From a virus, in the IMG/VR virus record IMGVR_UViG_3300036770_002724, positions 1 through 64,000 of that record: DNA of 64,000 nt; one strand, 5' to 3'. Position 1 is the stretch's first letter. Each line of letters starts with the position of its first letter. The notes below the pieces were generated by a model. That model was not told the DNA's origin. It was given only the letters and a program-made list of their open reading frames with translations, and did no database searches. Made by a program: the position numbers and the translations under genes. Positions 33,146 through 51,011 of this stretch are shown in pieces.

Positions 33146-35014
33146 ATGGGCCTAGCCAATATCGCGATGGGCGTGGGGCGTACCAAGCCCTCGGGAAGCG
33201 CCCCCTCTTCCGTCGTAGACATCATCACCTTCGCGGAATCCGACTGGGGACTGGGGTGTAACCTCTTTCCGGCTCAGAGAGTCATCCTCAAAGCCTTCTA
33301 CGGGATCCCTCTCAACGATACAGACAAGACGGTCCCCGTTTCGGACTGGCGTCGGCAAAGCTGGGCGCACATGACGGAAGCGGACTACCTCCGCAAGCTC
33401 TTCGACGACGGGCGGTCCAGTATCCGCGAGGTCGTCCCGGGAGATGAACGCCACGAGCTAGTTCTGAGCATCGGGCGCCGTTCAGGGAAGACGTTGATGG
33501 CGTCGGTCATCGCGACCTACGAGACGTACAAGCTGCTGCTGAAGGGGTGTCCTCAGAAGTACTACGGGCTTCCGACGACCAACGAGATCGGTATCGCCAG
33601 CGTCGCGACGGACAAGAAACAGGCAGGTATCCTCTACACAAACGTCTCAGGCTACTTCGCGGATTGTTCCTTCTTCTCGCAGTACATGGCGAATAGCACC
33701 CTGAGCTTCGCCAAGCTACAGACCCCCTACGACATCGAACGCTACGGTCGATTCAATGAGGCAGAGACCACCCGGTCCTCTATCTTCGTGAGCTTTCACG
33801 CTTGTGTCGCCAAGGGTCTTCGTGGTCCCGGCAACATCGTCATCATCCTCGACGAGCTAGCTCACTTCGTCGATGAGGGGCAGTCCTCCGCCGAACTGGT
33901 GTACAACGCGATCACGCCCAGCAAGTCGGCGTTTTCGCCCAAAGACCCCAACAGCCCCCAAGTCCCGACCGGCCCCGTAGAGGGGCGGGTGATCAGCATC
34001 AGTTCTCCTCTGGGTCGTCAGGGTCAGTTCTATTCCCTGTTTGAGATCGCCATGCGGGGGAGCGAGGCGAGCAAGGACATGCTCGCGATCCAGGCTCCGA
34101 CCTGGGAAGTCAACCCGACGGTCCCGGCGACCGAGTTCGAGAAGCACTACCTCAAGAATCAGACGGTCTTTTTCACGGAGTACGGGGCAGAGTTCACCGA
34201 CCGGACCCGAGGGTGGATCGAGCGGGCCGAAGACCTGGAAGCCTGCATTGACCCCACGGCAAAGCAGGTAGATGCTGCTCCGGCACGTCGCCCCCACTTC
34301 ATCGGGATCGACTTGGGCATGGTGGAGGACGCCTCTGCCGTGGCTATCGGCCACATCGAGGAACGCGAGGGTGAGAAGGTCATCATCGTGGATCTCGTGG
34401 ACCAGATCAAGGCTGGGGATGGCCGTTTCGCCAACGTCGAACGGCTAGATTTTGATGACATCGCGGACTGGATCCACCAGCTTTCCAAGCGGTTCTATCT
34501 GGCCGGTGGGGTGTTCGACCAGTGGGCGGGAATCCCGTTCGAGCAAGCTCTGGCAAAGCGGGGGCTTCGTCAACTGGTCTCGGAGCACATGACCAAGAAT
34601 CTGGTAAGCTCCATCTACCAGAACTTCAAGGACATGATGTTCGACCGTCGACTGGTCCTGTACGACGCCCCCATTCCTCCGGGCAAAAACCACTGCGATT
34701 ACATCCAGGAGCTTTTGGAGCTACAGGCACAGTCCGTCTCGAAGTACATCACGGTCGTCGAGGCTCCTAACATCGAGGGTAAGCACGATGACCGTTCGGA
34801 CGCCCTCGTCCGTATGGTCTGGCTCGCTAGCCAGAACATCACCAAACCCAAGTACATATCCAGGGGTGACGGGGCGACCTTGTCGCAGAGGACCGCAGCT
34901 ACGGCGAACATCCGGGAGGTCGCTAAAGCGGCTCTAGGTGCCCGTAAGATGGGGTCGCACCCTTCCCGGCAAGTTTCCCCTCTAGGCAGGGGTCGGGTTC
35001 TCGGTCGGAGGTGA
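33146..35014 (+). CDS. terL: Terminase large subunit
   Basis: GRRSGKT Walker A, IILDE Walker B, ISSP motif III, IGIDLG and HDDRSDA nuclease motifs. Confidence 0.93.
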   Translation: MGLANIAMGVGRTKPSGSAPSSVVDIITFAESDWGLGCNLFPAQRVILKAFYGIPLNDTDKTVPVSDWRRQSWAHMTEADYLRKLFDDGRSSIREVVPGDERHELVLSIGRRSGKTLMASVIATYETYKLLLKGCPQKYYGLPTTNEIGIASVATDKKQAGILYTNVSGYFADCSFFSQYMANSTLSFAKLQTPYDIERYGRFNEAETTRSSIFVSFHACVAKGLRGPGNIVIILDELAHFVDEGQSSAELVYNAITPSKSAFSPKDPNSPQVPTGPVEGRVISISSPLGRQGQFYSLFEIAMRGSEASKDMLAIQAPTWEVNPTVPATEFEKHYLKNQTVFFTEYGAEFTDRTRGWIERAEDLEACIDPTAKQVDAAPARRPHFIGIDLGMVEDASAVAIGHIEEREGEKVIIVDLVDQIKAGDGRFANVERLDFDDIADWIHQLSKRFYLAGGVFDQWAGIPFEQALAKRGLRQLVSEHMTKNLVSSIYQNFKDMMFDRRLVLYDAPIPPGKNHCDYIQELLELQAQSVSKYITVVEAPNIEGKHDDRSDALVRMVWLASQNITKPKYISRGDGATLSQRTAATANIREVAKAALGARKMGSHPSRQVSPLGRGRVLGRR

Positions 35015-35282: not shown

Positions 35283-35676
35283 GTCAAGGGTACGTCGCCG
35301 TGCTCAGGAAGATTTCGGTCGGGAGATGCAGCAGCACATTTCCCGGTCCCTTCGGCATTTGATCCAAGCCCAAGAGATATGTCAGCGGATTGCACGGGAT
35401 GCGGATCCCATGAACCGCATTGAGGTTCGACGTGCAAGGGTCGCGAATCAGACGTTGAGCAGGGTGCGCTCGCTCATCGAACAGATTGGACCCTTGTCTC
35501 CGGGCTACGATAAGAGTGACCCCGACCTGACGCCCGAGACTACGAAGCGTCCGAGGCAGTCGGAAAAGCAAGCGTCACAACAGTCCGCAAAGCCGGTCAA
35601 GCGGGTGTTGTCATTCCAAGACCGGGTCCGGCAAGCCTTGGAGAAGATGAGGGAACAGGATGGCTCGGAACAATAA
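35275..35676 (+). CDS. Small basic hypothetical protein
   Basis: Overlaps both neighbours by a few nt. Confidence 0.6.
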   Translation: MTRSRVRRRAQEDFGREMQQHISRSLRHLIQAQEICQRIARDADPMNRIEVRRARVANQTLSRVRSLIEQIGPLSPGYDKSDPDLTPETTKRPRQSEKQASQQSAKPVKRVLSFQDRVRQALEKMREQDGSEQ

Positions 35677-37351
35677 TCCCGCTGATACGGTGAAGGTGGC
35701 GGAGATCCCCCCTCGTCCTAACGTCAAGGTAGGGAAGCCGGGTCAGGTCGTCACTACCGCCATGCGGATGAAGACGGCCTTTCCGACGGTCGGAGGCACC
35801 ACCCTGGGTTCTGGCGGCAACTTCTACTCGCCGGAGCTTTCGACCGACTTCCTTGAGCTTCCGCAGACCACCGACGAGCAGAGGAACTACTACAGGTTCT
35901 TCTATGACCACGACGAGTTCATCGGGCAGGCCATCGACCTGACCGCTGAACTTCCGTTGTCCAAGATCCGACTTCGGATGCCCGAGGCCAAGAACCGAGA
36001 GATCGCTGAACAGGCGATGCGGTTCTGTCAGCGGTGGTCCCGGAAAATCGGGCTCCTTCATCGGCTGATCTCCATCGTCCACGACTACTTTCTGGTCGGG
36101 GAAGCCTTCGTCTTTTGCGAGGACACCTCGCCAGATATGCCTCCCGACGTCCGGTCCTACGCAATCCGGGAGGTCAAGGAAGACGGCTCGACCGAAGAGA
36201 AGTGGCTCGACTACCCCGATGCAAACGAGCGTGCGGTTGCTTGGCTGAAAAAGAACTACCAGGGCTGGACGGCGGTTCGCGTCCTTCCACCTGAGCAGAT
36301 CCACATGGAGAGCTTCCCGTTCACGAACGAGAAGCTCATCGAACTGGTGGTGGACAGCAAGACCAAGGCTATCGTCCAGAAGGCGCAGCAGGGGGATCTT
36401 CGAGCGCAGCAGATCGTGGACTCCATGCCCCAGGAGATCGTCGAGGCTGTAATCAGCGGTCAGAACCTGCCCCTCAACACCGACCCCGATGCCGGGAGCT
36501 TCTGCTTTCATCTCGCCCGCAAGAAGTCTGACTACGAGCCCCGGGGAAAGAGCGTTCTACAGCGATGCCTTCGGACCCTGGTCTTTCGGGATAAGGTCCG
36601 TCAGGCTCTCACCAGCATCGCTTCCCGGCACATGACCCCGTTCCGGCTCATCTACGCGGAGGACATGGACGCCGAGCAGACCGAAGACCTCCGTGCCCAG
36701 GTTGACCTCGCCCTTCAGGATCCCGACTACTCCATCATCACCAACTTCCAAGTGAACTGGGAAGAGATGGGGGCCGACCAGCGTCTCCCGAACTGGGATT
36801 GGGTCTACGAGCAGACGAACAAGCAGCTTTACGCGGGCCTCGGTATGACAGAAAGCCTCCTCTCCGGCGAGAGCAGCTACTCAGGCGACCGGATTCACCT
36901 GGAGGTCATCAACACGCGGTTCATGCTTCTCCGCGAAGCTCTCCAAGACCTCGTCGAAGACTTCATGTTCAAGCCCATGTGCGCTCGCATGGGCTTCGTC
37001 GAGGAAGATGAGGACGGCAACCTCGAAGTGGTTTTCCCTCGACTGTCGTTCACCCGTCTGGCGCTTCGGGACAACCAGGAGACGTTCGACGCCCTGTTCA
37101 ACCTGTACCAGAAGGGCTCTCTGGACGTGGAGGTCATCCTCGACCTCCTGAACATCGACCCGCTGACGACCAAAGAAAAACTGGAAAAGGACATGCTCAC
37201 GCCGAATGACGCCCTTTTCAACGAGATCCTGCGGTCGGCGTACAGCGGGGTTGGAAACGCCCTTCCGGAGCAGACGGACATCATCGAACGGGCGGCGAAG
37301 GTCATGGGCCTGAAATACAAGCCCCCGGCTGAAGGCGGAGATCGTTTCTAG
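35660..37351 (+). CDS. Portal protein
   Basis: 563 aa, helical, follows TerL and precedes the protease/scaffold/MCP genes. Confidence 0.75.
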   Translation: MARNNNPADTVKVAEIPPRPNVKVGKPGQVVTTAMRMKTAFPTVGGTTLGSGGNFYSPELSTDFLELPQTTDEQRNYYRFFYDHDEFIGQAIDLTAELPLSKIRLRMPEAKNREIAEQAMRFCQRWSRKIGLLHRLISIVHDYFLVGEAFVFCEDTSPDMPPDVRSYAIREVKEDGSTEEKWLDYPDANERAVAWLKKNYQGWTAVRVLPPEQIHMESFPFTNEKLIELVVDSKTKAIVQKAQQGDLRAQQIVDSMPQEIVEAVISGQNLPLNTDPDAGSFCFHLARKKSDYEPRGKSVLQRCLRTLVFRDKVRQALTSIASRHMTPFRLIYAEDMDAEQTEDLRAQVDLALQDPDYSIITNFQVNWEEMGADQRLPNWDWVYEQTNKQLYAGLGMTESLLSGESSYSGDRIHLEVINTRFMLLREALQDLVEDFMFKPMCARMGFVEEDEDGNLEVVFPRLSFTRLALRDNQETFDALFNLYQKGSLDVEVILDLLNIDPLTTKEKLEKDMLTPNDALFNEILRSAYSGVGNALPEQTDIIERAAKVMGLKYKPPAEGGDRF

Positions 37352-37382: not shown

Positions 37383-38717
37383 ATGCACCCCAAAGCCTCA
37401 GTCGCCTTGATGAAGTTCCTATCCGGTGCTGCTCGACGGCTCGGAGTAGGCGATCACGCTTATGTCGTAGGGGGTGCCGTCCGGAACTACGTCCTCGGGG
37501 TTCCGATCAAGGACGTCGATCTGGTCATCGATCCCACCGTTCAGCCCGGTAAGGACTCGGCCTGGTTCGCGAAGCAGCTACAGAAGCTCATCCCCGCCCC
37601 GACCAGTCTCGTGACCAACAACTACGGGGTCGCCATCCTGTCGGTGAACGGCCCTTGGGTTCTTGGCGGTCACGACCTGGACGGGGAGAAGATCGAGATC
37701 GCAAATGCCCGCAGCGAGTCCTACGCTGAAGGGGGCTACAAGCCCGATCAAGTCGTTCCGGCCACGATCCAAGAAGACGTTTACCGCAGGGAGTTCACCT
37801 TCAACACCTTGCTGTGGCGGCTAAAGGATCTCGCGCAAGGGCCGGACAAGGCAGAGATCATTGACCTCACGGGTTGCGGGCTTCGCGACCTTGAGCGAGG
37901 GGTCATGGCTTGTCCCCGCGATCCCGATGAGGTGTTCGCGGATGACCCGAGCCGGATGATCCGGGCGGTCAAGTTTACCATCAAGTACGGGTTCAAGATC
38001 CCCCCGGACCTAGAAGCCTCGATTCGACGGAACGCTTCTCGACTTCGCCAGATTCCTCCCGGGCACATCACCAACATGCTCATCGAGACTTTCTTGCGGG
38101 ATCCGTCCGGCAAGAAGGCTCTGATGGAGATGGACCGTCTCGGGCTTCTCGCGGTCATCCGAGAGATCGCTCAGGATAACAAGTCTTTCCGACAGAGTCT
38201 CGCCAACTGGGCGGAGTCTGAGGCGAGCGTAGCCTTCCTCTTCGACCTGATGGATCTCGGTATGCCCGTGGGAAAGAAACTGACCTTCCTGTCCCCAGAG
38301 GATGTCTCCAGGGTTCGCGAGGTCACCTTCGACATGACTCCCGCGAAGGGTGAAGCCTACGTCTCCGTCCTCAAGCAGCCGGGTCGGGTTCTGGACTTCC
38401 CCTCGCTCATTCAGGAGTTCGATCTGAAGGGGCCGGGGGTTGGTGTTCTTACAGACGTTGCCCGCCGGTCCTTGCTCGAAGATCCTGACCTGATTGACGA
38501 CTCTCGGCGCTTCTCTGACCAAGTGCGTCAGAGACTCATGTCCAAGAGGGTTGCTTCGCGCGTTCTGGCTTCGGTTCGTCGTCCCTCGGTCGAGGAGAGC
38601 GATAGCCCCCGCGAGTACCTCGGCTCCCCGCTCTCGACACGCCCTGATTACGGGCGAGGTTCCTCTAGCCGGGTCGCTAGCCGGGTCGCTAGTCGATGGC
38701 TCGCGAGTAGGCGTTGA
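37383..38717 (+). CDS. CCA-adding enzyme / poly(A) polymerase family nucleotidyltransferase with basic RVASR tail
   Basis: VGGAVRN..KDVDL, ARSESY, EDVYRREFTFN, DDPSRMIRAVKF. Confidence 0.9.
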   Translation: MHPKASVALMKFLSGAARRLGVGDHAYVVGGAVRNYVLGVPIKDVDLVIDPTVQPGKDSAWFAKQLQKLIPAPTSLVTNNYGVAILSVNGPWVLGGHDLDGEKIEIANARSESYAEGGYKPDQVVPATIQEDVYRREFTFNTLLWRLKDLAQGPDKAEIIDLTGCGLRDLERGVMACPRDPDEVFADDPSRMIRAVKFTIKYGFKIPPDLEASIRRNASRLRQIPPGHITNMLIETFLRDPSGKKALMEMDRLGLLAVIREIAQDNKSFRQSLANWAESEASVAFLFDLMDLGMPVGKKLTFLSPEDVSRVREVTFDMTPAKGEAYVSVLKQPGRVLDFPSLIQEFDLKGPGVGVLTDVARRSLLEDPDLIDDSRRFSDQVRQRLMSKRVASRVLASVRRPSVEESDSPREYLGSPLSTRPDYGRGSSSRVASRVASRWLASRR

Positions 38718-38733: not shown

Positions 38734-41700
38734 ATGTCTATCTGGTTGGAAGCCGCTCTGGACGAACTTCACGGACCCCTTTCCGACTGGGTTCACTATG
38801 GTCGTTCCGGTTCCAAGCGAGAACTGTTTGAGGCATACGACGGGCTTGCGCCTCAAGCGAAGATGGCTCTGGCAGGCGCGGTGAGAAAAGCGTTCGGAGG
38901 CTCCTCCAAGGCTATCATGTACCGACGGCTGAAATCCTCCGGAGAGGCTAGCCGGATGGGAGGGATGTCTCTCACAACAGCCCTTCCTGGCTACGTCGAG
39001 GCGGAGGCGTTCGAGGTTGAAGCCGATGACGTCCTCGTCCATCACGGTGTCCCCGGAACCCCGCTTAGTAGCAAAGCCTTCGGGCACGAGAAAGAGGTCA
39101 TCTTGAAGCCGACGGCGAACCCGAAGAGTCTAGGCCCGGTTCCGGCTAACAGGACTGCGGCCCGCTACAAGGATAAGAAGCAAGTCCCGAAGGCTGATGG
39201 GAAGGGAAAGACGACGGTCTACGAGTACAGCGACCGTCAGGTCGCCCTCCGAAATCGAGAGAAGGCCAAGCAGGTCGAGAAGATCCGAAGGTCCATCGGG
39301 GATCTGAGGGAGCAAGTCCGGAAAGACCTCAAGTCGAAAGACGAGCACACCCGGAACGTCGCCCTAGCTGTAGGTCTCCTGGACAAAACTTACGAGCGCG
39401 TCGGGAATGAGGATTCGGCCAAAGACGGTCACGTCGGGGTCACCGGCTGGAAGGTGAAGCACCTCACGGTTGGCAAGGACAAGATCACGATCAAGTACGT
39501 CGGCAAGTCGGGGGTCAAGCACGAGAAGGTCGTCGACAACGCTGCCTCGGTTGCCGCGATCAAGAAGGCTATCGAAGGTAAGAAGGATGACGACCTCATC
39601 TGCGGGTGCTCTGCCGAGGACGTGAACGAATACTTGGAACCCTTCGACATCACCGCTAAAGACCTTCGGGGCTACCACGCCAACACCGAGATGCAGACCC
39701 GGCTGAAGCGGATTCGATCCGAGAACGGGGCGCTCCCCAAGAATCGGGAAGAGCGGAAGGAAACGCTCAAGGAGGAGTTCGATCAAGCCCTGGAGGAGAC
39801 GGCGGAGGCGGTCGGTCACGAACCCTCGACCTTGCGTTCCCAGTACCTCGTCCCCGGACTCGAAGACGAGTTTATGAAGGACGGTGAGGTGAGCCAGACG
39901 CTCGACAAGCGGGGCTCATCCGTGAAGGTCGCTCTACGCGAAGGCTCCGGTCTGTCGCGGATCGCGGGAAGGATTCGGACGGTCCCTACCCCAGATTCCC
40001 TTGTACCTTCGTCTGTTCGCTCTTTTTTCAACCGGAATCAAGCGGTATTTGATCGGTATCCCGACTTGTGGCTGAAGGGCGGGGCGGCGCGCGGGACTTT
40101 TGTTTCTTGGGCGTTTCTCAAGCTATTCGGAGCTAGGGCGGAGCCCAAAGAGGCTAGGGACTTCGATTTCGTCACTTTCAGTCAAGAGGGTCCTTGGGAA
40201 GTCGAGGGTGAATCCGTCGAATTCGCATCCTCCGTTTCGGCTTACATGGGGTCGAGAGACTTCGGGGTGAACGAGGTTCTCCTTCGTCCGGACAGGATGG
40301 TTTTTTCGGACAAGGCTTGGAGGGATGTTCTCCGGCTTGAGATTTCCCCTCGTTCTGTCATCGAAGAAGACCGCTACGGGCGGACGGGGCTTCGCGCGCT
40401 CTTGTTCGTTCTGGAGCTAGGATTTAGCCCAGGGAAGTTCATCGCGGAAGAGATCAAGAAGGCGGATACTTGGAATCTTCTTCTCCATCTATTCAAAGCA
40501 TACGAGAAGGGGATAGAGGACGATTACTTCCTCTACATCAAGAAGTCTGGGGGGGTGCTAACGGAACGGATAGCTACGGTAGACGACTGGCTGATCGAGC
40601 TAGTTGGAGCAACCCCGCATTTTTCGTTGCGGCCTTACCATAAGGCTATCTTGGATAAGGCTAAAGAAATGTCGAATCTCGGGAAAGACCCGTTCGATTC
40701 GATACCCCGGTCGGCTTCCGAGTCTCTTCTTCAACATTGGTTCGCCTCCTCTTTTGACCGGGTCGCCACGAAGACCGAGGGGGAGAAGGAAAACGAAGAG
40801 GTCGAGCGGCTGGTCAAGCCAGCCCCCAAGACCAAGCCCCCGCGTCAAGACCTTCGCCGCAATCGGATGAAGGTTGAGGACGAGGACGTTGAGCGTCCAA
40901 GTGCGGAGTCGGATCGGGATCTCTCCCTGAACTACAAGAAGGTCGCCGCCGAATTGACCGCTCGTTGGTACGGGGTCATCCCGCCTCGCCCCAAGCCTCC
41001 GAAGCCGCCCCCTCTACCGCCGAGGGATCCGATCCCCGGATGGAACCCTGTTACCCTTGATCTTGCCCAGAAAAAGTCCCGCAAGCCGGGCGACGTGTGG
41101 CGATCCAAGACCCCGGGTCGTTGGCTCGCGATGAATTCGGAGGAGACTGTACATTCCTTTGAGGACAGATCGAAGGCAGAGTCTTTCTCCCAGAACGGGA
41201 AAAGGGCATCGAACGCGGAGTGGTTGGCTCTACGGTTCGCAGATGCCCCCTTGAATCCTACGGACCACAGACCCGGTGACGTTTGGGAATCTGAACGTAC
41301 TCCTGGTCGCTGGTTAGGGAAGAACCCCGAAGGTGTGTCGAAGTCTTTTGACACGAAGGAAGAGGCTCAATCCTTCGCGAAATCCGAAGCGACCTCAGAG
41401 TCCGAAGCCCCAGAAGACGGTGACCTTCAGACCAAGGATACGACTCCCCAAGAGCCGCCGCCGCCGCCGAGCCCAGAGGAGTCGATCTCTCAGATGGTGA
41501 AATCCCTCTCAAACCTAGAGGACGAGCAGATCCAATCGACTCTCGAAAGTTTCTCAGACGCGGAACGCGCCAAGATTGCAGAGACCTTTGCCCAAGAGAG
41601 CGAGACGCTTCGACGTGCGTTTGAGGATGGTACGCTCCTCGGCTCCGACAAGGATCTCAAAGAGGTCTCGGAGGCGTTTGAGAACCCTTCCTCTTCTGTG

Positions 41701-42771
41701 GAGCCTTCCCTGCTGGGTAAGCGACTCGCACAAGCCCTCTTTGCTAAGACCGTTCTGGCCAACCCTCTCCAAGTCGGGAGCCCCCTCAGTGCCGCCCCCT
41801 TGGCTGACGACCAGCTATCCAAGCGACGTGTGGACTCCATGAAGCACTTTGGCCAGATGTCCCCCGCGATTCGCTCGGAGGCCATGAAGAACATCCACCA
41901 GGAGATGACTCAGATCCCGGACGATAAGAGCGAAGCCTCGGAGGCTAAAAAAGCTGACCTCCAAGCTCGCCTCGTTGGACTCACCCTTGCCGCTGCCATG
42001 AAAGATGAACCTTGCTCGGCCAAGGTCGAGGGCGAATGGGGAGAAGAGGACAAAGAGCTACACCCCCCTATCCCTCCAGCTACCGTGAAGCTGTTGAAAG
42101 CCTTGGACAAGCAGGGTCAGTCTAGCTTGGTTCTTGATGCCGTCTCCGCGCGCGGGACTCCGAAAGGTCGTGAAGCCTTCGTGAAGGCGCTGGAGTCTAT
42201 GGGGGAGGATGGACTCCTCAGTTTTGCCAAGAGCGTGGATGCCTTTTCGGACATGGTGGATGTCCTGGAAGACTCCGATACGACCTCTCTGGTTCGCCTA
42301 AAGACCCAAGCGGTCCTCCAGGATCTCATCGTCAACCACTTGATGTTCGGAGACATGTTCACCCAAGACGCTCTCGACGAGTCCGATGAGCGCCGTCCCA
42401 AGAAACGTAAGCAGAAGTCTGACAAGATGAAGTCTGAGCCGAGCCCAAGGACCTTGAGGAAGATCAAGGATCTAAACAGTTGCATCAGGGACAAGGGCTT
42501 CACCAGCGAATGTGAGGTTCTTTCTCTGGATGTCGAAAAGACCGCCCTTGATGATCTTTTCAAGGACATTCTGCGTGACATCGGCAAGATCCCCAAAGGC
42601 AGTGAGGCCAGGGCTCAGATGGAAGCGTTCCAGCAGGAAGAGAACGTGGAGGACGCCCAAAAAATCTTGAAGACGCTGTTCGTACAGACGGGCGACCTCC
42701 CGTCTGGGGCACGGTCTCAGCCCACTAGAACCGCAGGACTAGAAGAACTGTGGGGCGATTATCTCCAATAA
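38734..42771 (+). CDS. Multidomain polyprotein-like ORF: ART-like domain, type IB topoisomerase, nucleotidyltransferase-like domain, tandem repeats, helical tail
   Basis: ART: MYR/SLTT/EKEVIL; Topo IB: RVGN, GKSG, KDLR, GH, QYL; NTase: LKGGAAR, RDFDF, RDFGVNEV; ATG 38734 with GAGG. Confidence 0.8.
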   Translation: MSIWLEAALDELHGPLSDWVHYGRSGSKRELFEAYDGLAPQAKMALAGAVRKAFGGSSKAIMYRRLKSSGEASRMGGMSLTTALPGYVEAEAFEVEADDVLVHHGVPGTPLSSKAFGHEKEVILKPTANPKSLGPVPANRTAARYKDKKQVPKADGKGKTTVYEYSDRQVALRNREKAKQVEKIRRSIGDLREQVRKDLKSKDEHTRNVALAVGLLDKTYERVGNEDSAKDGHVGVTGWKVKHLTVGKDKITIKYVGKSGVKHEKVVDNAASVAAIKKAIEGKKDDDLICGCSAEDVNEYLEPFDITAKDLRGYHANTEMQTRLKRIRSENGALPKNREERKETLKEEFDQALEETAEAVGHEPSTLRSQYLVPGLEDEFMKDGEVSQTLDKRGSSVKVALREGSGLSRIAGRIRTVPTPDSLVPSSVRSFFNRNQAVFDRYPDLWLKGGAARGTFVSWAFLKLFGARAEPKEARDFDFVTFSQEGPWEVEGESVEFASSVSAYMGSRDFGVNEVLLRPDRMVFSDKAWRDVLRLEISPRSVIEEDRYGRTGLRALLFVLELGFSPGKFIAEEIKKADTWNLLLHLFKAYEKGIEDDYFLYIKKSGGVLTERIATVDDWLIELVGATPHFSLRPYHKAILDKAKEMSNLGKDPFDSIPRSASESLLQHWFASSFDRVATKTEGEKENEEVERLVKPAPKTKPPRQDLRRNRMKVEDEDVERPSAESDRDLSLNYKKVAAELTARWYGVIPPRPKPPKPPPLPPRDPIPGWNPVTLDLAQKKSRKPGDVWRSKTPGRWLAMNSEETVHSFEDRSKAESFSQNGKRASNAEWLALRFADAPLNPTDHRPGDVWESERTPGRWLGKNPEGVSKSFDTKEEAQSFAKSEATSESEAPEDGDLQTKDTTPQEPPPPPSPEESISQMVKSLSNLEDEQIQSTLESFSDAERAKIAETFAQESETLRRAFEDGTLLGSDKDLKEVSEAFENPSSSVEPSLLGKRLAQALFAKTVLANPLQVGSPLSAAPLADDQLSKRRVDSMKHFGQMSPAIRSEAMKNIHQEMTQIPDDKSEASEAKKADLQARLVGLTLAAAMKDEPCSAKVEGEWGEEDKELHPPIPPATVKLLKALDKQGQSSLVLDAVSARGTPKGREAFVKALESMGEDGLLSFAKSVDAFSDMVDVLEDSDTTSLVRLKTQAVLQDLIVNHLMFGDMFTQDALDESDERRPKKRKQKSDKMKSEPSPRTLRKIKDLNSCIRDKGFTSECEVLSLDVEKTALDDLFKDILRDIGKIPKGSEARAQMEAFQQEENVEDAQKILKTLFVQTGDLPSGARSQPTRTAGLEELWGDYLQ

Positions 42772-42904
42772 AATGAGGGCTTGGGGGCGGGTACGATGGG
42801 CGTACTTGGTTTCCCGGTTTTCAATCTATACCAAGGGCGTACTAGCAGAGGATGCCTTTGCGCCTTCGGGTCGCAGTCCTCGGCCCAGCCCTAAAAAGGA
42901 GTCG

Positions 42905-43876
42905 ATGATGAGCAAGCTGACCAAGAAAGGCGCGCAGGCCGTGACGGCGGACCTTGATCGCCTCGCCAATCTGTTCCAGACGAACCACAAGGTGCTCGGT
43001 GTCCCCGCGCGTATCGCGACGGATTTCGCCTACCGGCTCGATCTTCTGTCGGACACCATCGAAAAGAAGGCGGGACTTCGTCGTACCGCCCTGACCGGCG
43101 ATGATGTTTTTCAGGAGTCGGGTTTCGATCCCGAGGCTATCGGGATGGAGCAGGACGGCCCCCTTGAGACCGTGGACTCGGACGAGCCCTGGATGGCGGG
43201 CGAGTTCACCGCCCAAGAGAACCGGGAGCTTCGCGAGCTTCAGCAGGCGGGAGCCCTTGGCCCCGAGGTCGTGGACGGTCCCCGTGCTCCGACTCCGGGG
43301 AAGCAGGCGGCGCTCGCTCGTCTGGATGCTGCCAACCGAAATCTTCTTCGCCTCGCGAAGACCTCGCCCCGTCTCGCCGGGGGTCTGACCCGTCTCGCGG
43401 CTCAGGTTCTCAATGTCAAGGCTGGCTACCTTGAGGGCCAGGTCTCGATGGGCCACGTCGCCAAGACCGTGAAGGCGGCGAAGCTCGCCGCCGAGCAGGT
43501 CGAGAAGTCTGAGGAGAAGGAAGCCGAGGAGAAGGAGCCGGGCGAGGAGAAGAAGGTCGCCAAGCTCGTCGCGATGGCTCACCGGATCGCTTCCAACACG
43601 CGCAAGGTTGCGAGGGTCGCGGATGCGTACATGCTCCTAGATTTCATGCAGAATTCTTGGGAGCACTACGAGTCCGTGTCTGAAGCGGTTCCACAAATCG
43701 TCAAACTTGGTTTCCCGTCTACCTTCGCCAAGGCTTTTCTCCAAGCGTGGGTGAAGAACCGTATTGGTTTGGTGCCGTTCAGGCAACGGACGAAAGCGGG
43801 AGCCAAGTTCATCGCAGATATGGCTTCGGAGCACGGGGTTCCCATCGATCCGGACTTCATCGTAGAGTGGGGCTGA
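42905..43876 (+). CDS. Hypothetical head-module protein, modular
   Basis: AAGGAG SD before ATG 42905/42908; K/R-x-A linkers. Confidence 0.75.
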   Translation: MMSKLTKKGAQAVTADLDRLANLFQTNHKVLGVPARIATDFAYRLDLLSDTIEKKAGLRRTALTGDDVFQESGFDPEAIGMEQDGPLETVDSDEPWMAGEFTAQENRELRELQQAGALGPEVVDGPRAPTPGKQAALARLDAANRNLLRLAKTSPRLAGGLTRLAAQVLNVKAGYLEGQVSMGHVAKTVKAAKLAAEQVEKSEEKEAEEKEPGEEKKVAKLVAMAHRIASNTRKVARVADAYMLLDFMQNSWEHYESVSEAVPQIVKLGFPSTFAKAFLQAWVKNRIGLVPFRQRTKAGAKFIADMASEHGVPIDPDFIVEWG

Positions 43877-43932: not shown

Positions 43933-44529
43933 ATGACCAAGCGTCTGTCGCGAAAAGTTGCCGTGGTGAACTACCAGAACCGGGCAAAGGATTTTGCCAT
44001 CGGTGACATGGTTTATCCTTACACCCAAGTCGGGGCTGGGATGAACCCCACGGCGTATTCGGGGCGTATCGTTGCCGTCTGGCCCGCTATCGGGATGGTG
44101 GACGTGGAGTTTCCCACGGGTAACACCCGGTTCCCGGTCGAAGAGCTACAAAAGACCCATTCCCAGGATGCTGTTCCGCCGAAGCCGACGGCGGATACTG
44201 TTCCGGGAGGGGCGGGTTCGGAGCCTGTCTCAGCGGGTCCGAAGGATGCGGATCCTGGTCAGAAGACCGCTTCTCGGATTGCATCTCGGGTGGCTCAGGC
44301 TTACGTCAAGAGGGCTCTCTACTGGGGGGCCTCTGACCGGCACTACCGGGCCACTCGGTCGGAGCTTGATCAGAACAGCTTTTGCTGTCCTCGATGTGAC
44401 AAGGAAAGCCTACTCCAAAAGGCTGTCTACAAGCGGGAGGATGGTCAGAGTGTCCGTCTCCTCGCCTGCAAGAAATGCCTGTTCCTGATCAAGCCCGACC
44501 AGATTCTCAACCACCCGACGGATGAATAG
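43933..44529 (+). CDS. Hypothetical protein with C-terminal Zn ribbon
   Basis: CPRC...CKKC; internal SRIASRVAQAY. Confidence 0.75.
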   Translation: MTKRLSRKVAVVNYQNRAKDFAIGDMVYPYTQVGAGMNPTAYSGRIVAVWPAIGMVDVEFPTGNTRFPVEELQKTHSQDAVPPKPTADTVPGGAGSEPVSAGPKDADPGQKTASRIASRVAQAYVKRALYWGASDRHYRATRSELDQNSFCCPRCDKESLLQKAVYKREDGQSVRLLACKKCLFLIKPDQILNHPTDE

Positions 44530-44538
44530 GGGAGAGGC

Positions 44539-47280
44539 ATGGCTTTCCTGAAGTACGCCAAGGCTGCGGTCGTCACCCCCTTCGTCACCCGGCAGCAGTG
44601 GACGAACGTCCGCGTCGCAGGTGAGTCGGCCAAGGTGGATCTTCCTTCCAACCTCGTCGAGAGGGCTGCTACCCTTTTTGACGAGCCCTTCGACCCCAAG
44701 AAGTACCTTTTGACCCACGCGACCATCGTCGCCTCCGTGGATGTCTTCGCCCCCAAAGGCGTGAAGGTCGGCAAGGTTCAGGAGGACGGCTTTCGGGTCA
44801 ATCGCAAGTACGCCGACTACAGGGTCAAGGCGGACTGCCAGAAGTACATCAACAACAACCGGGACTGTTGGTCCCGTGCTGTTCTTGCCAAATCCTACAA
44901 GACCTTCGTGGGGAGCCACAACTTCGTCGAGCACGTCCAGATTGAGGACTTGTCGAAGGGTCGTATCATCGACGCGGTGGCCCGGGACATCGGGGAGTCG
45001 ATTTACGTCGACATCTTGATTGCGACCGACCGTAAGCACAAGGATCTCGTCGAGGCCATCCAGTCGGGCAAGATGGGAACCCTGTCGATGGGCTGTTTCC
45101 TTCCTGGGACTCAGGTCACAATGGCGGACGGACGCCGTATTGCCATTGAGGATGTGCAGCCTGGCGATATGGTTTTGACCCACAAAGGTCGTTCGCGTGA
45201 GGTTCTGAATAAGCAGATCCGAGGCGGCAAGTGGGACATGCGGACGATCCACGCTGTCGGGCTGGCCTCCCCCATCACGTCCACCGGAAACCACCCCTAC
45301 TACGTCCTGCGCCCAGCCGAGGTTTGCGCTTGCGGGTGCGGTGAGGCGTTGCCCGTTTATGCCCCGGCGGTGAAGAAGCCGACAACCCGTAGCCTGACTC
45401 GACGGTTCAAGGTTGGGCACGACAAGCGCATCCTGAATCCAAACAACACCTACTCGATGGACGAGTTCAAGCGTCGGAAGGCGCAGATGAACGAGATCCA
45501 GAACCCCGATTTGGTGAAGGTTCGGGCTGATGAGCTTCGGGTCGGGGACTTCATCGCCTTTCCACGGGTGAAAGACGGGGAGCACACGGTCCCTGTTTCT
45601 GAGGGCAAGGCTCGCTTGCTGGGATACTTTTTGGCTGAAGGTAGCTTCAACAAGCGGAAGGGTCGTCGGACGACTGTGGTGTTCTCGTTCTCAATGGAGG
45701 AGAAGGACACCCTCGTCGCAGAGGTGGTTCGGCTGTTGGAACAAGAGTTCCCCGGCAAAAACAAGCCGTGGGTGCAAGATCGGGTCAAGCGGAACACCTG
45801 CGTGGTCCACCTGACCAGTCGCAAGGCGGCAGATTGGTTCCACAAGCACGGCGGCGAGTACAGCCACGGCAAGTGCCTGTCTGCTGACGCGATGAACTGG
45901 TCGCAGGAGAACCACAAGCATCTGATCGGAACGTGGCTCAATGGGGACGGTCACCGTGCCAAGGCTCACGGGGGGTTCCTCGTGGGTACCACCGTGTCAT
46001 TGGACCTCGCTAACCAGTTGCACGCCCTGATGGCGAAATGCGGCTGGTTTGCTCGCTTTGAAGCCCGCATTGGATCGAAGTCGATCACGGTAGCAGAGGC
46101 CATCAACGGTGGGGTCGCTGTTCGTGACGAGTCCACAGGACGCCTCCCGGCTTTCTTGTTGACCATCGGGAACACGCAATCGGTCGAGTTGCAAGGCTAC
46201 TGTGCTAAGGCTCCCGCCACGTCGAAGTACGGCAAACAGAACAATCGCGTCTTCGATGACTGGGTGATCAGCCCGATCACGGCTATTGGGGAGAGCACCT
46301 ACGAAGGTTGGGTTCACGATATGGAAGTGGACGAAGACCACACCTATGTCGCAGAGGGGGCTTCGGTTTCAAATTGTACGGTAGACGGTACGATATGTAC
46401 GAAGTGCGGCCACTGGGCTTCGGATGAGACGGAGATGTGCCCCCACGTCAAGTACGAGAAGGGGAATACCTTCTACGACAAGGAAGGTCGGAAGCACATC
46501 GTGGCAGAGCTTTGCGGTCACGAGGATCTGGACCCGACCGGAGGCGTGAAGTTCATCGAAGCCTCTTGGGTGGCGACTCCGGCGTTCACGGGCGCGGTTC
46601 TTAGGAACGTCCTGGAGCCGACCGTGGAGATTTCTCGCAAGGCTCAGAAGGTGCTATCCTCTCCCCCGAATCAGTGGGACGAGAGCGCCCGTAAGAAAGC
46701 GGCTTTCTCGCTTGACCAGAAGTCTCTGGAAGGTCGGGTAGAGGCCCGTCGCCGGGCACGGCTCGCTTCGATTTACGCCCAAGATGATGGGATGTCCGAC
46801 CCCTCTGAGGGGGGTGGTGAAGCTGCGAAGGCGGAGCCTGCGAGCCCCCTGAAGGACATTGAGGACCAGTTGACCCAGACCTTGCTCGACAAGGTGCGGA
46901 AGCGGGTCGAGGACACCATCAAGGATGACACCAAGCCTATGGGTCCGCCCGAGGCTTCGATTGCCACGAACGAAAGTCTCAGCAGGGTCGCTCACATCCC
47001 CGGTATGATCCGGGTTTACGAGCAAGGTCTACGGAAGCTCGCACGAACGGCCACTACGGATGTTGAGCTTGTGGACCGTATTGCGGATTATCACAAAGGA
47101 ATCGGTCTGGAAGTTCCCGTTTCTGTCTATAGAGCCTGCCTAAAGGTAGGTGCAGTAGGCAACTACGGGTCGCAACAGGAGTTCCTGTCGTCCTGCCGGA
47201 AGGCTCTCGGTCGAAACCCCACGAAGGTGGAAGCGGGAGTCCTCATCCGACTGGGAAAGCTCCTCTCCCACGTTGGGTGA
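44539..47280 (+). CDS. Prohead maturation protease precursor containing an intein
   Basis: Between portal and scaffold/MCP; FVEH and LSMG motifs; SFIEASW-type motif (KFIEASW) after the insertion. Confidence 0.75.
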   Translation: MAFLKYAKAAVVTPFVTRQQWTNVRVAGESAKVDLPSNLVERAATLFDEPFDPKKYLLTHATIVASVDVFAPKGVKVGKVQEDGFRVNRKYADYRVKADCQKYINNNRDCWSRAVLAKSYKTFVGSHNFVEHVQIEDLSKGRIIDAVARDIGESIYVDILIATDRKHKDLVEAIQSGKMGTLSMGCFLPGTQVTMADGRRIAIEDVQPGDMVLTHKGRSREVLNKQIRGGKWDMRTIHAVGLASPITSTGNHPYYVLRPAEVCACGCGEALPVYAPAVKKPTTRSLTRRFKVGHDKRILNPNNTYSMDEFKRRKAQMNEIQNPDLVKVRADELRVGDFIAFPRVKDGEHTVPVSEGKARLLGYFLAEGSFNKRKGRRTTVVFSFSMEEKDTLVAEVVRLLEQEFPGKNKPWVQDRVKRNTCVVHLTSRKAADWFHKHGGEYSHGKCLSADAMNWSQENHKHLIGTWLNGDGHRAKAHGGFLVGTTVSLDLANQLHALMAKCGWFARFEARIGSKSITVAEAINGGVAVRDESTGRLPAFLLTIGNTQSVELQGYCAKAPATSKYGKQNNRVFDDWVISPITAIGESTYEGWVHDMEVDEDHTYVAEGASVSNCTVDGTICTKCGHWASDETEMCPHVKYEKGNTFYDKEGRKHIVAELCGHEDLDPTGGVKFIEASWVATPAFTGAVLRNVLEPTVEISRKAQKVLSSPPNQWDESARKKAAFSLDQKSLEGRVEARRRARLASIYAQDDGMSDPSEGGGEAAKAEPASPLKDIEDQLTQTLLDKVRKRVEDTIKDDTKPMGPPEASIATNESLSRVAHIPGMIRVYEQGLRKLARTATTDVELVDRIADYHKGIGLEVPVSVYRACLKVGAVGNYGSQQEFLSSCRKALGRNPTKVEAGVLIRLGKLLSHVG
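45094..46374 (+). mobile_element. Intein (427 aa) with LAGLIDADG homing endonuclease
   Basis: Starts CFLPGTQVTMADG, block B THK...TGNHP, LLGYFLAEG and WLNGDG, ends HDMEVDEDHTY...VSN followed by +1 Cys. Confidence 0.93.
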
Positions 47281-47328
47281 GGGCGAATGGAACGCAACGC
47301 AGTCGCCATTCATGCAAAGGAGAATCAA

Positions 47329-49203
47329 ATGAGCATCAGGAAGCGCATGACTTGGGCGGGTCGCAAGGCGTCGAACCCTCCCGCTATGCCTGGCTACGGA
47401 ACCGAGGATCAGGATCACCCGGCGCACTACCCGGACCCTGCCGCTGACCTCTACGAGAACGGTGACACGGACTCGTGGGCGGAGACCCCGAAGCCCCCGC
47501 CCTACCCGCAGGGCAATCCCCCGGCGATGCCGGGTTACGACACTGAGGATCAGGATCACCCGGCTTATGTCCAGCAGCCGCGCGTTCCGAAGTCGGCGGC
47601 TCTTCGCGCCCGTATTGAGCGCAAGGCGGCGAAGTGCGCTCGCATCGCGCAGTCGATGCTCGGCCCCCAAGCCCCGATGGCGATGGTCGAGGACCAGTCG
47701 CTCGCCCTCATGGATCTCCCTGACTCGGAGATTGACGCGACCCTCGCTCGGATGAGCGGTGGGATGCTCATGGCCGAGGAGCACGAGGGTGGCGATGAAG
47801 AGGCCATGCTCGCGGAGATGATGGCTGAAGAGGGTGTTGAGGCCGAGGAGCACGAGGGTGGTGACGAAGAGGCCATGCTCGCGGAGATGATGGAAGAGGC
47901 CGGAGACGAGATGCTCGCGGGTCGTACTTGGGGCAACCCTTTCCCTCGTCGGACGCCCGATGACAACGTCCCTTATAACAAGCATCCCGGTTCGCCGCCC
48001 GCAGGGGCGAATGGTTCTCCGGAGCGGAAGAAGTACAACCAGTGGTTCCGTGAGAACGTCTGCCCGGATCACAAGACGAACTGCGGTATGCCGAAGAAGA
48101 AGACCGCTGAAGATGCCATGCTCGCTCAGATGATGATCGAGGAAGGCATGATGGCGGGCGATGAGGAAGGCATGGAGGCCGGAGACGACGGTCTCATGGC
48201 GTCCATGCTCGCGGAGATTGAGGCTCTTCAGGCTGAGAACCAGGCTCTCAAGGCGGGCAGGCGGGCCAATCAGAATGACCCCAAGGGTCCGACCCTTGGT
48301 GCCAAGTCCAAGTCGGTTGAACAGGCCGAGGCCGAGGCTATGGCCTTGGCCGATGAAGAGTTCAAGACCGCCGAGGACGAGTTGGACGCCGAAGAGGAGT
48401 CCATGCTCGCGGAGATGGTGAAGCAGGAGGCCAAGAAGGCTGCTCTTCGCCGTCGCGCCAAGAAGTCCGAGGAGGTCGAGTCCGAGGAGGTCGAGTCCGA
48501 GGACGAGGTCGAGGCCGAGGAGGAGGCCCCCAAGGCTTCCAAGAAGAAGGCCAAGAAGTCCGAGGAGGTCGAGTCCGAGGACGAGCATGAGGCCGAGGAC
48601 GAGGAGGCCCCCAAGGCTTCCAAGAAGAAGGCCAAGTCCTCGATGGGTTGTGGTGACTCTCCGGGCGCGATGTTCGCTATCGACGAGGAGGCCAACGACC
48701 CGATGGGTCTGATGGGCGAGGCCGAGATCCACGAGGGAGATGAGATGCTCCTGGCTGAAATCTTCGGCAAGAAGGCAGCCGAGGATGAGGTCGAGGCCGA
48801 GGACGAGGAGGCCCCCAAGGCTTCCAAGAAGAAGGCCAAGAAGTCCGAGGATGAGGTCGAGGCTGAAGAGGAAGAGGCGTCCGAGGAGGAAGTCGCTTCC
48901 AAGAAGGCGGCTCTCCGTGCGGCCCTCCTGCGTCGGGCAAAGGCCAAGAAGTCCGAGGATGAGGTCGAGGCCGAGGATGAGGTCGAGGCCGAGGATGAGG
49001 TCGAGGCCGAAGAGGCCAAGAAGGAGGCTCGCCGCCTAGCGGCGCGTCGCCAAGAGGCTCTCCGCCCGCAGCCCCGTAAGCCGAATCACGGGATCAAGAC
49101 CATTGGCGGGATGTCGCGTTCTGCCGGTTCGCGGAGCGAGGTCGGTGACCTGGAGAATCTCTGGGAGACCGCCCCGGACGTGAGCGCCGTCTTCGGCAAG
49201 TGA
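47329..49203 (+). CDS. Capsid scaffolding protein (acidic, internally repetitive)
   Basis: Between protease and MCP; Glu/Ala/Lys repeats; AAGGAG SD before ATG 47329. Confidence 0.75.
   Translation: MSIRKRMTWAGRKASNPPAMPGYGTEDQDHPAHYPDPAADLYENGDTDSWAETPKPPPYPQGNPPAMPGYDTEDQDHPAYVQQPRVPKSAALRARIERKAAKCARIAQSMLGPQAPMAMVEDQSLALMDLPDSEIDATLARMSGGMLMAEEHEGGDEEAMLAEMMAEEGVEAEEHEGGDEEAMLAEMMEEAGDEMLAGRTWGNPFPRRTPDDNVPYNKHPGSPPAGANGSPERKKYNQWFRENVCPDHKTNCGMPKKKTAEDAMLAQMMIEEGMMAGDEEGMEAGDDGLMASMLAEIEALQAENQALKAGRRANQNDPKGPTLGAKSKSVEQAEAEAMALADEEFKTAEDELDAEEESMLAEMVKQEAKKAALRRRAKKSEEVESEEVESEDEVEAEEEAPKASKKKAKKSEEVESEDEHEAEDEEAPKASKKKAKSSMGCGDSPGAMFAIDEEANDPMGLMGEAEIHEGDEMLLAEIFGKKAAEDEVEAEDEEAPKASKKKAKKSEDEVEAEEEEASEEEVASKKAALRAALLRRAKAKKSEDEVEAEDEVEAEDEVEAEEAKKEARRLAARRQEALRPQPRKPNHGIKTIGGMSRSAGSRSEVGDLENLWETAPDVSAVFGK
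48460..49020 (+). repeat. Coding tandem repeats in scaffold (EDEVEAE / EEAPKASKKKAKKS units)
   Basis: Repeated GAGGTCGAGGCCGAGGA and GCCCCCAAGGCTTCCAAGAAGAAGGCCAAG blocks, all in frame. Confidence 0.9.
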
Positions 49204-49430: not shown

Positions 49431-50120
49431 ATGCCGTTGCTTGGACAGGCCAGTGGTGGTTGGACGGAGTCTTCGTCGGCTCTGCGACTGCTTCACGTCG
49501 GTATTCGCAATACCGTGGGCATCGTGACCGACGATAGCTTCACTCAGACCAACCCCCCGGCGATCACGACCGCTGCGACCATCTCGACCCGGATCAACCA
49601 GCGCAAGTTTGGTGTGCTCTCGGGCTCGGTGGCTTTCACCCGGGCGGATGCGGGTAGCAACTTCATCGGTGGTCCCGGCCTTGCCGCGACCCAGGTGGCG
49701 ATTGCTGCTAACAACGTCTGGTTCACTGGCTACCGGGCGCTGGGTTGCTTCATCAACTCGGCTACCGGCAACCCGTATGAGAACCTTCCGGCTCAGGCGT
49801 CGGGCAAGTGCCCTTATGTCTCGGCCCAAGGGACTTACGGCAACCGGACCTACGAGACCCAGGCCATCGCTTCGACCGGCGCTATCACGGCGGGCGACGC
49901 GCTGACCTACACCACGGGTCAGCCGCTCCTCGCCTCGCGCAACGGCTACATCCAGCCTGCGGCGATGGTGTTCGGCGGCGTCCTCGTGGACTTCAACGTC
50001 GTTGTGACCTCGGCGGAGTGCTTTGCGCGTACCGCCGCTGGCGTCGCGACCATCCTCGGCGTCGTGAAGATGCCGCCGGATGCAGTGCAGACCGAAGTCG
50101 TTTACGACCAGCGGATCTGA
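49431..50120 (+). CDS. Probable capsid decoration/stabilising protein
   Basis: GGAGG SD; small-residue-rich; immediately upstream of MCP; positional assignment. Confidence 0.55.
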   Translation: MPLLGQASGGWTESSSALRLLHVGIRNTVGIVTDDSFTQTNPPAITTAATISTRINQRKFGVLSGSVAFTRADAGSNFIGGPGLAATQVAIAANNVWFTGYRALGCFINSATGNPYENLPAQASGKCPYVSAQGTYGNRTYETQAIASTGAITAGDALTYTTGQPLLASRNGYIQPAAMVFGGVLVDFNVVVTSAECFARTAAGVATILGVVKMPPDAVQTEVVYDQRI

Positions 50121-50138: not shown

Positions 50139-51011
50139 ATGGCAGTAGATAACGCCATCAAGCAGCGGATCATCGGTGAGTACATCAAGACCGCCGCTGG
50201 TCGTGCAAAGCTCGCTGCGTCGATGACGCAGCCCCTGCGGACTCGTCGTGACTACGCGGCGGTGGGTCGTAAGACCTTCCTCGTCGAGCAGCTTCCCGAC
50301 GGTGCCCTTCCGATTTACGACAAGGATCCGGACGTCACGGCGTTCGTGGTGGGTGAGGAAGGCGAGAACATCGTCGGCATCACCAAGCCCCGGCGTGTGA
50401 TCTTCCCGCTGTTCGAGATTGCCTCGAACCCGGAGATCCCGCTGACCCAGATCAAGGAGCGCCGCTTCGACCTCATCGAGCGTGCCCAGGATCTCGCGAA
50501 GGCGCAGATCCAGGCTGCCGAGGACGAGCGGGTTTTCGCGATTCTGGACGCTATCGCCACGGCGGGTTTCGACTCGCTCCCGGCGCAGCTAAACGCGGAC
50601 ATCCCGGTTGTGGCTCCGATCAGCGGTGCCGTCCTCGCGGACGCCTTCGCTCTGATCGAGCGTCACGATCTCCGGGTTGCTCGCGTGTACATGAACGCTC
50701 GCGACTACGCGGACCTCCGCAAGTTCGGGCGTGACATCCTGGACATCGAGACCCAGGCGACCCTGCTCAAGACCGGCCTTATGGCGACCCTCTGGGGCTC
50801 GCAGGTCATCACGAGCCGTCTGGTCCCGGTGGGCACGGTGTACCTGTGCTGCGAACCGGAACACTTCGGTCGCATCCCCGTCCGTACGGAACTGACTGTT
50901 CTTTCGGCGGATGACCCGAAGGCTCGGACCATCGGGTTTTCCTGCTTCGAGAACCTGGGCATCGGGGCGTACAACCCCCGTGGCCTGGCGCGTCTGACCG
51001 TGACCCGCTAG
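50139..51011 (+). CDS. Major capsid protein (HK97-like fold)
   Basis: Highly biased codons, AAGGAG SD, followed by a strong terminator; AQIQAAEDERVF long helix, VYMNARDYADL, LWGSQVITSRLVP. Confidence 0.85.
   Translation: MAVDNAIKQRIIGEYIKTAAGRAKLAASMTQPLRTRRDYAAVGRKTFLVEQLPDGALPIYDKDPDVTAFVVGEEGENIVGITKPRRVIFPLFEIASNPEIPLTQIKERRFDLIERAQDLAKAQIQAAEDERVFAILDAIATAGFDSLPAQLNADIPVVAPISGAVLADAFALIERHDLRVARVYMNARDYADLRKFGRDILDIETQATLLKTGLMATLWGSQVITSRLVPVGTVYLCCEPEHFGRIPVRTELTVLSADDPKARTIGFSCFENLGIGAYNPRGLARLTVTR

Follow-up and report, generated by a model that had tools for sequence, protein, structure and literature searches.

The window analysed here spans the first 64 kb (positions 1 to 64,000) of a 139-kb linear virus record in IMG/VR (IMGVR_UViG_3300036770_002724), whose CheckV completeness of 26% implies a genome of ~500 kb. 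It contains a single open frame on the plus strand (38734..42771; ATG at 38734, with GAGG 8 nt upstream) that encodes a 1,345-aa multi-domain protein (P0001). From its N-terminus, this protein comprises an ADP-ribosyltransferase (ART) domain, a type IB topoisomerase (Topo IB) module, a divergent nucleotidyltransferase (NTase) module, a conserved linker module, two copies of a mini-domain, and an acidic C-terminal region. We lean towards reading it as a cargo of the phage head, in which swappable enzyme cassettes would be carried on a constant chassis. An earlier note on this DNA had placed all of these motifs in one open reading frame between the portal and protease genes. Each motif was recovered at the position given there, and the placement of the gene was also correct, with two small conserved genes (p367 and p198) lying between it and the protease gene.

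Three enzyme domains in one polypeptide

The ART domain occupies residues 1–139 (38734..39150, plus strand). Its motifs MYRR (residues 62–65, nt 38917), SLTT (79–82, nt 38968), and HEKEVIL (118–124, nt 39085) contain R64 (nt 38923), S79 (nt 38968), and E119-x-E121 (nt 39088–39096), respectively, in keeping with the R-S-E pattern that the earlier note had recognized. Searching the full library by phmmer with residues 1–150 matched 100 representative clusters, 58 of them at E-values up to 1e-10. Some of these relatives are stand-alone proteins of 140–180 aa and others are modules in larger proteins, which also carry InPase, Phage_Mu_F, GNAT, kinase, and zincin domains. Only W19, K28, R64, S79, E119, and E121 are invariant in an alignment of 33 sequences. 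None of these 33 members matched a Pfam model at E-values up to 1, and no sequence match to any PDB chain was found for the family. The domain is an undescribed family with an ART fold, one that no existing family model covers.

An AlphaFold2 model of the domain, built from the family alignment, has a predicted local distance difference test (pLDDT) score of 93.8 and consists of three N-terminal helices followed by six strands. R64 ends strand 1 (residues 59–64), S79 opens strand 2 (79–81), and E119-x-E121 leads into strand 5 (121–124), a layout that is the same as that of R-S-E ARTs. Foldseek comparison with the PDB gave no significant E-value, with iota toxin Ia, CDTa, C2-I, ExoS, and TreX among the top rows. 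In a VIA-align comparison with 48,161 chains, nearly all of the top 25 matches were R-S-E ARTs (Z 3.5–5.4, 105–121 of 145 residues aligned), including CPILE-a (Z 5.4), C2-I (5.2), ExoS (5.0), Certhrax (4.9), XopAI (4.8), C3 (4.5), VIP2 (4.3), HopU1 (4.2), and ART2.2 (4.1). Because the whole VIA-align list agrees with the invariant R-S-E motif, the assignment of this domain to the R-S-E type of ARTs is firm at the level of the modelled fold, and the activity is predicted. In ARTs such as Alt, iota toxin, and C2 toxin, an ExE motif goes with arginine as the acceptor. Since the motif here is ExE and not QxE, analogy with these enzymes suggests that arginine would be the acceptor, and the likeness to phage T4 Alt drawn in the earlier note is apt in this respect.

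Within IMG/VR the ART module was found only in L007, L084, and L085, and PHROG annotation of the genes beside the L084 and L085 copies gave nothing informative. None was found in the GTDB genomes covered by a single-pattern search, and comparison of the model with BFVD matched only uncharacterised viral proteins (best E 1.4e-3).

The Topo IB module follows at residues ~146–395 (39169..39918, plus strand). It matches PF01028 over residues 173–366 (E 1e-28; 100.7 bits against a cut-off of 23.7), and residues 154–384 align by phmmer with the variola and vaccinia enzymes and with other solved TopIB chains at E-values down to 9e-13. The complete catalytic set claimed earlier is present: R222 (nt 39397), K258 (39505), R312 (39667), H362 (39817), and the nucleophile Y371 (39844) occur in the expected order within or after the motifs ERVGN (221–225, nt 39394), VGKSG (256–260), KDLRG (309–313), and VGHEPS (360–365), and they align with the active-site boxes of the vaccinia and variola enzymes, including GH...Y. 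These residues are kept in 96–98 of 100 aligned family members. The N-terminal DNA-binding domain of the poxvirus enzymes mostly lacks a counterpart. Variola residue 62 aligns to residue 154 here, and only ~14–25 residues, including VYEYS, precede the core; since the alignment starts at variola residue 62, the Y-x-Y strand is all that is retained of the N-terminal domain. By sequence, the module is a truncated Topo IB with a complete catalytic set and predicted activity.

The third enzyme module (residues ~412–660; 39967..40713, plus strand) combines a divergent class II NTase head with a helical neck. Its motifs are LKGGAAR (447–453, nt 40072), RDFDF (475–479, nt 40156), and RDFGVNE (508–514, nt 40255). 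A search with residues ~400–660 recovered only five relatives, all of them within Topo IB polyproteins (P0007, P0010, P0011, P0012, and P0100), and the order of the module relative to the Topo IB domain differs in some of these. L-W-x-K-G-G-x-A-R, R-D-x-D, S-R-D-x-G-x-N-E-V, and an R-x-x-L-R-x-x-L helix are invariant across the six copies, as is an acidic residue ~18–20 positions past DxD (E496 here). Motif A is thus represented by G449-G450...R453 and D476-x-D478 and motif B by S-R508-D509-x-G-x-N-E, in which S replaces the first R of RRD. The order GG...R/DxD, acidic residue, RD-x-G-x-N is that of motifs A, B, and D of class II CCA-adding enzymes.

Structural comparison points in the same direction as these motifs. 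Foldseek with the AlphaFold2 model of the module placed E. coli poly(A) polymerase (PAP) I, A-adding enzyme, and CCA-adding enzymes at the top (best E 7.5e-3), and the top seven VIA-align matches were all class II CCA-adding enzymes or PAPs (Z 5.3–7.6, root-mean-square deviation ~3 Å over 106–112 residues, 15–18% identity), among them 3aql (7.6), 1ou5 (7.5), 4wby (7.1), 1miv (6.2), and 3h37 (6.2), with unrelated helical chains appearing from Z 4.8. ESM Atlas features gave 0.93–0.94 to 'Poly A polymerase head' clusters, and phmmer against the PDB returned 1miv at E 0.44. The check by structure prediction thus recovered both the ART and the NTase fold, as the earlier note had anticipated. The module lacks the tRNA-holding body and tail domains and ends after a helical neck of ~100 residues. 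No stand-alone version was found among proteins of 149–475 aa, nor in IMG/VR by pattern search and tblastn. Judged from its model, the module is a minimal and divergent NTase of the class II type whose active site looks intact.

A Topo IB chassis, variable cassettes, and a border motif

A word-indexed search recovered 99 relatives of the protein, which are large (750–2,300 aa) and share the Topo IB core at 50–78% identity. Outside the core, domain content differs widely: PF01743 (the CCA-type head) occurs in 16 relatives, DUF5661 in 11, 2H phosphoesterase in seven, PAP2 in six, HAD_SAK_1 in five, RNA ligase and NUDIX in four each, ART-PolyVal in two, and various others besides. A scan of IMG/VR confirmed the Topo IB chassis in 143 stretches, of which 80 loci on contigs of up to 618 kb were returned and form the basis of our locus counts. 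The chassis is widespread, and we found no paper describing it. Across these loci the Topo IB reading frame ranges from 272 to 2,834 aa. A stand-alone Topo IB of 344–356 aa lies between the terminase and portal genes in one huge-phage sub-clade (~7 loci: L051, L053, L057, L062, L070, L071, and L074, at ~9970–11040 in each).

Among the 80 locus proteins, the ART module occurs in only one other (L007) and the NTase module in none, and the combination of ART, Topo IB, and NTase is therefore rare. The earlier note had not recognized this combination from described phages; no other sampled member joins the three enzymes, but the kind of protein is known, from the polyvalent proteins (PMC5512222). 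A 402-kb relative has the same head-gene order and a capsid protein 89% identical to that encoded here. Its polyprotein carries a 2H domain with Topo IB, without ART or NTase, and its C-terminal part is only ~21% identical. Given these differences in cassettes and identity, change in the putative cargo protein far outpaces that in the shell.

The remainder of the protein is also partly shared. The conserved linker module (residues 661–780; 40714..41073, plus strand) is common to ~70 of the 99 relatives and to 48 of the 80 locus proteins. The two GDVW...PGRW repeats that the earlier note had pointed out are real and lie at residues 783–822 (41080..41199) and 845–885 (41266..41388), both on the plus strand; the mini-domain that they form is a unit of ~40 residues (GDVW...PGRW...F..x..A..F) present in 39 of 100 family proteins. 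The acidic C-terminal region (residues 891–1345; 41404..42768, plus strand; isoelectric point 4.8), which the earlier note had called a helical tail, matched nothing in Pfam, PHROGs, or the Atlas. It recurs at 20–30% identity in ~40 relatives, C-terminal in every case, and in 29 of the 80 locus proteins. In our reading, the constant chassis consists of the Topo IB module, the conserved linker, and this acidic region, with ART and NTase as the cassettes of the present protein.

Short basic stretches lie at the borders of these modules. The earlier note had seen [KR]-x-A linkers there and had inferred that the protein is cut into separate enzymes. The linkers are real at residues 140, 398/409, 676, 736, and 1332, and they belong to a family-wide motif, R-V-A-[AS]-R-[YWF]. 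Using the pattern [KR]-[VTI]-A-[ASG]-x-[YWF], we counted 129 copies in the 100 family proteins, against 5.5 expected from shuffled sequences; of the strict form R-[VT]-A-[AS]-R-[YWF] there are 46 copies, where zero are expected. Forty-one of the 129 copies precede the Topo IB module and 88 lie elsewhere: 12 within 30 residues of the N-terminus, 13 within 40 residues of the C-terminus (typically 8–14 residues from the end), and the remainder at other domain borders. Single-domain proteins have the motif too, at the very start or end of the chain. Six strict copies occur in this genome, near protein ends or, in the multi-domain gene, at a domain border, and the tail of the CCA-type enzyme encoded by the adjacent gene holds one of them.

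Within the multi-domain protein, the strict copy is RTAARY at the ART/Topo IB border (residues 140–145; 39151..39168, plus strand), the only one that fits the strict motif and the only one found by a hidden Markov model of it. Model pLDDT falls to 57 in this stretch, and L007, the only other polyprotein with an ART module among the 80 loci, has RVASRW directly after its ART. The Topo IB/NTase junction (39925..39966, plus strand; pLDDT <50) carries KVA (398) and a degenerate copy, RIAGRI (409), which aligns with RVAARY (P0007), KVASAY (P0012), and RIASSF (P0010) at the same module start. In the linker module, RVA-T (676) and KVAAEL..ARW (736) are degenerate here and are full copies in aligned homologues, with DRDLSLNYK-RVAARW at the matching position. 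The last 14 residues, with RTAGLEELW at 1332, are likewise degenerate and resemble the C-terminal copies of relatives. Low model confidence suggests that the motif stretches are probably exposed.

Similar stretches were seen in other proteins. The p367 and p198 proteins each contain motif-like RIAS... stretches, in p198 as an internal SRIASRVAQAY. R-[VI]-A-[AS]-R-Y lies at or near the ends of further family-less proteins (27469–28443 and 28517–29164 in the window; 69363 and 123792 in the genome), for example as KIAARY near an N-terminus or RVASRYLGEDE at a C-terminus.

The gene stands in a head-gene cluster whose order is large terminase (TerL), portal, CCA-type enzyme, multi-domain gene, p367, p198, protease, scaffold-like protein, p229, and capsid protein. 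In ~60 of the 80 loci, the Topo IB frame sits past the portal gene and ahead of homologues of the six genes from p367 to the capsid protein gene; a p367 homologue follows the Topo IB gene in 54 loci and a p198 homologue in 62, and in ~15 loci BLAST recognized no head gene. TerL lies at 33146–35014, and just upstream of it a 155-aa protein (31434–31901) has weak ferritin-like and DUF5856 matches (E ~1e-4, under cut-offs). The Mu-type portal gene (35660..37351, plus strand; phrog_16240, E 1e-27; Portal_Mu) is directly followed by that of a canonical class II CCA-adding/poly(A) polymerase-type enzyme (37383..38717, plus strand; PF01743, E 2.6e-17; NCBIfam CCA/PcnB models), which adjoins the multi-domain gene. 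The basic tail of this enzyme ends RVASRVASRWLASRR, with RVASR copies that arise from a 12-nt tandem duplication (ccgggtcgctag twice, ~38672–38695). In the 16 related polyproteins with a PF01743 domain, this CCA-type domain is fused into the protein (E 1e-88 to 1e-122). No tRNA gene was found in the 139-kb fragment.

Downstream on the plus strand, p367 (42773–43876, 367 aa) and p198 (43933–44529, 198 aa) are conserved head-module genes that matched no known family. The p198 protein has a small beta-rich N-terminal part and a four-Cys zinc-ribbon-like pattern at its C-terminus, and is a candidate adaptor or prohead core protein. The prohead protease gene (44539..47280, plus strand; phrog_18299) is split by an intein with Hint and LAGLIDADG matches (45094–46374, ~427 residues). 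Its extein junctions read ...LSMG / C...intein...SN / CTVDGT; the intein-free homologue of the 402-kb relative is continuous at SMG-CTVDGT, and an intein-free homologue in L002 aligns on each side of the insert. The next gene (47287..49203, plus strand) encodes a highly acidic, repetitive protein of 638 aa that is scaffold-like in composition and whose position is kept in 51 of 80 loci. Its repeats (EEAMLAEMM and KKKAKKSEE..E) are not kept in homologues, which share N-terminal EDQDHPAH..YENGDT and C-terminal LWE.APDVS boxes. Its 'AMLAEMM' helices were considered as a receptor for the border motif and rejected, since the repeat is absent from most homologous scaffolds. The p229 gene (49431–50120, 229 aa) and an HK97-fold major capsid protein gene (50139..51011, plus strand; NF042927, E 3e-42) complete the cluster.

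A probable head cargo and alternative explanations

The identities of the domains, their intact catalytic residues, a conserved chassis with rapidly exchanged cassettes, the position of the gene within the portal-to-capsid head cluster, and the motif bordering the cassettes are established. On balance, and with modest conviction, we favour the reading that the protein is a polyvalent-type head cargo, built of a constant chassis with swappable cassettes, that is packaged and enters the host with the DNA; gene context suggests that packaging probably occurs. Incorporation into the procapsid would depend on the conserved C-terminal part, on the motif as an address label, or on both, and the protein would be released into the host together with the DNA. 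There, much as poxvirus cores use their packaged TopIB, the Topo IB module could relax the huge genome on its arrival for transcription or replication early in infection, and the ART could act on host proteins in the way that T4 Alt does. Repair or alteration of tRNA 3' ends may fall to the NTase and to the CCA-type enzyme encoded next to it. The frequency of RNA ligase, 2H, HAD_SAK, and NUDIX domains in relatives suggests a role in RNA-end repair or counter-defence.

Several observations weigh against this reading. A position in the head operon is no proof of packaging. Searches of the constant region detected no MuF domain, no portal-binding domain, and no domain known to direct proteins to capsids, and most motif copies within the protein are degenerate, with only RTAARY strict. 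Among GenBank phages, the Topo IB part was found in one uncultured 485-kb record only, with no cultured relative, and the ART and NTase modules were absent from those searched. The fold-search Z scores of the ART and NTase models are moderate (<8). For the NTase module there was no Pfam match (PF01743 was not matched at E-values up to 1), local hhalign comparison with 17 CCA heads was weak (E 0.017), and the AlphaFold2 model, built from four sequences, is of medium confidence (pLDDT 67.6). The prohead protease matched no PDB or Pfam entry from which a family, and with it a cleavage specificity, could be read.

What the motif does bears on how such a cargo would operate. That it acts as a docking or address label seems to us an evenly balanced proposition, whereas cutting at the motif by the prohead protease, in line with the earlier note's proposal of processing during head maturation, is doubtful: copies at protein ends fit a label at least as well. 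A fuller scheme, in which every cassette bears its own label, joins the others on the Topo IB chassis, enters the procapsid, and is then set free by the protease as a separate enzyme, is one we put forward tentatively and would not expect to hold in full. If it did, the virion would deliver an active topoisomerase, an arginine-specific ART, and tRNA 3'-end enzymes along with the DNA; tailed phages would then have an equivalent of the enzyme kit in poxvirus cores, and this would be the first R-S-E ART in a polyvalent protein.

Alternatively, the protein may be packaged and injected as one intact polypeptide in which the motifs are only docking labels or flexible joints, and the tethered enzymes would act jointly on incoming DNA and nearby host factors. 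This is possible, though we judge it well short of probable. Many proteins have the motif 8–14 residues from the C-terminus or in the first 10–15 residues, and a label role explains these terminal copies better than cleavage because cutting there would remove only a stub. The T4 capsid-targeting peptide is, however, a label and a cleavage site at once, so the two roles are not exclusive, and motif copies that lie exactly at domain borders, in exposed stretches of low model confidence, are less readily reconciled with a protein that stays whole. In favour of an intact protein, many polyvalent proteins have no known processing (Iyer et al., PMC5512222).

The main rival to a cargo of either form is that the protein is a late cytoplasmic helper of head assembly or packaging. 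Here, Topo IB would relieve torsion at the packaging vertex while the terminase pumps in ~500 kb, the fused enzymes would act late in the infected cell, maintaining tRNAs and modifying the host, with no injection of any part. Consistent with such a role, Topo IB is the one constant enzyme and is always beside TerL and portal, in some loci as the stand-alone form between these genes, and it is gene context that has been taken to indicate packaging. The cassettes argue otherwise: ART, ART-PolyVal, NUDIX, 2H, RNA ligase, PAP2, and GNAT domains are typical of effectors that act at the start of infection (PMC5512222), their turnover is fast relative to that of the capsid protein, which points to a role in conflict, and the ART family co-occurs with MuF, a domain of head-internal proteins. 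We regard the helper role as improbable on these grounds. It is very improbable that the enzymes include inactive fold relics serving as structural mass inside the head, since each of the three domains keeps its catalytic residues invariant or almost invariant throughout its family, which is unexpected for relics, even though the NTase is very divergent (no Pfam match, and SRD rather than RRD in motif B) and the ART is small (139 aa) with no sequence match to a characterised ART.

Relation to known phage and viral systems

Were the protein packaged as the head-cargo reading holds, tailed phages of 400–600 kb would enter the cell equipped with their own DNA-relaxing enzyme and with an exchangeable assortment of enzymes that modify the host or act on RNA ends. 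This would go some way towards explaining how genomes of that size become active and escape early defences. The analysis also defines two enzyme families for which no model exists, one a compact ART of the R-S-ExE type and the other a minimal NTase resembling class II, and the border motif could be used as a tag that directs foreign proteins into capsids.

Individual parts of the protein resemble well-studied enzymes. The poxvirus TopIB is carried in the virion core. It shares the catalytic pentad and the core fold family with the phage module, whose best solved matches include 2h7f and 1a41; the phage module differs in lacking most of the N-terminal DNA-binding domain and in being embedded in a 1,345-aa protein. 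The NTase module has the head fold and motif order of class II CCA-adding enzymes and PAP I (PF01743) but differs in having no Pfam match, no body or tail, SRD in motif B, and a distribution restricted to six metagenomic polyproteins.

T4 Alt is a single-enzyme protein whose N-terminal tag is removed by gp21 after Glu. Like the present protein, Alt and the internal proteins IPI–III involve an R-S-E ART thought to travel in the head and a short terminal peptide proposed as a prohead address. The motif described here is, in contrast, basic and stands at either end of a protein or between domains, and no sequence similarity of the multi-domain protein to T4 proteins was found. The ejection ('E') proteins of SPN3US and phiKZ are cleaved at sites of the x-x-Glu type. 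Those phages are also large, and many head-loaded enzymes are cut during their maturation (PMC7411985, PMC10052503); the present protein has no sequence relation to theirs, and its neighbouring protease is unclassified.

The closest parallel is with polyvalent proteins. The account of these proteins in PMC5512222 does not include Topo IB as a component (its single mention of 'topoisomerase' is a reference title), nor does it describe a constant Topo IB chassis or an R-V-A-x-R-Y border motif, and we found no description of phage Topo IB in virions or in polyvalent proteins in the literature. The likenesses are several. Polyvalent proteins join several unrelated enzyme domains in one polypeptide, as ART, Topo IB, and NTase are joined here; their genes stand among head genes of the portal and terminase type; their domains are heavily shuffled; and relatives of the present protein share the marker domains ART-PolyVal, InPase, MuF, 2H, and GNAT with them. 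The protein is a variant, centred on Topo IB, of the class described by Iyer et al. 2017 (PMC5512222).

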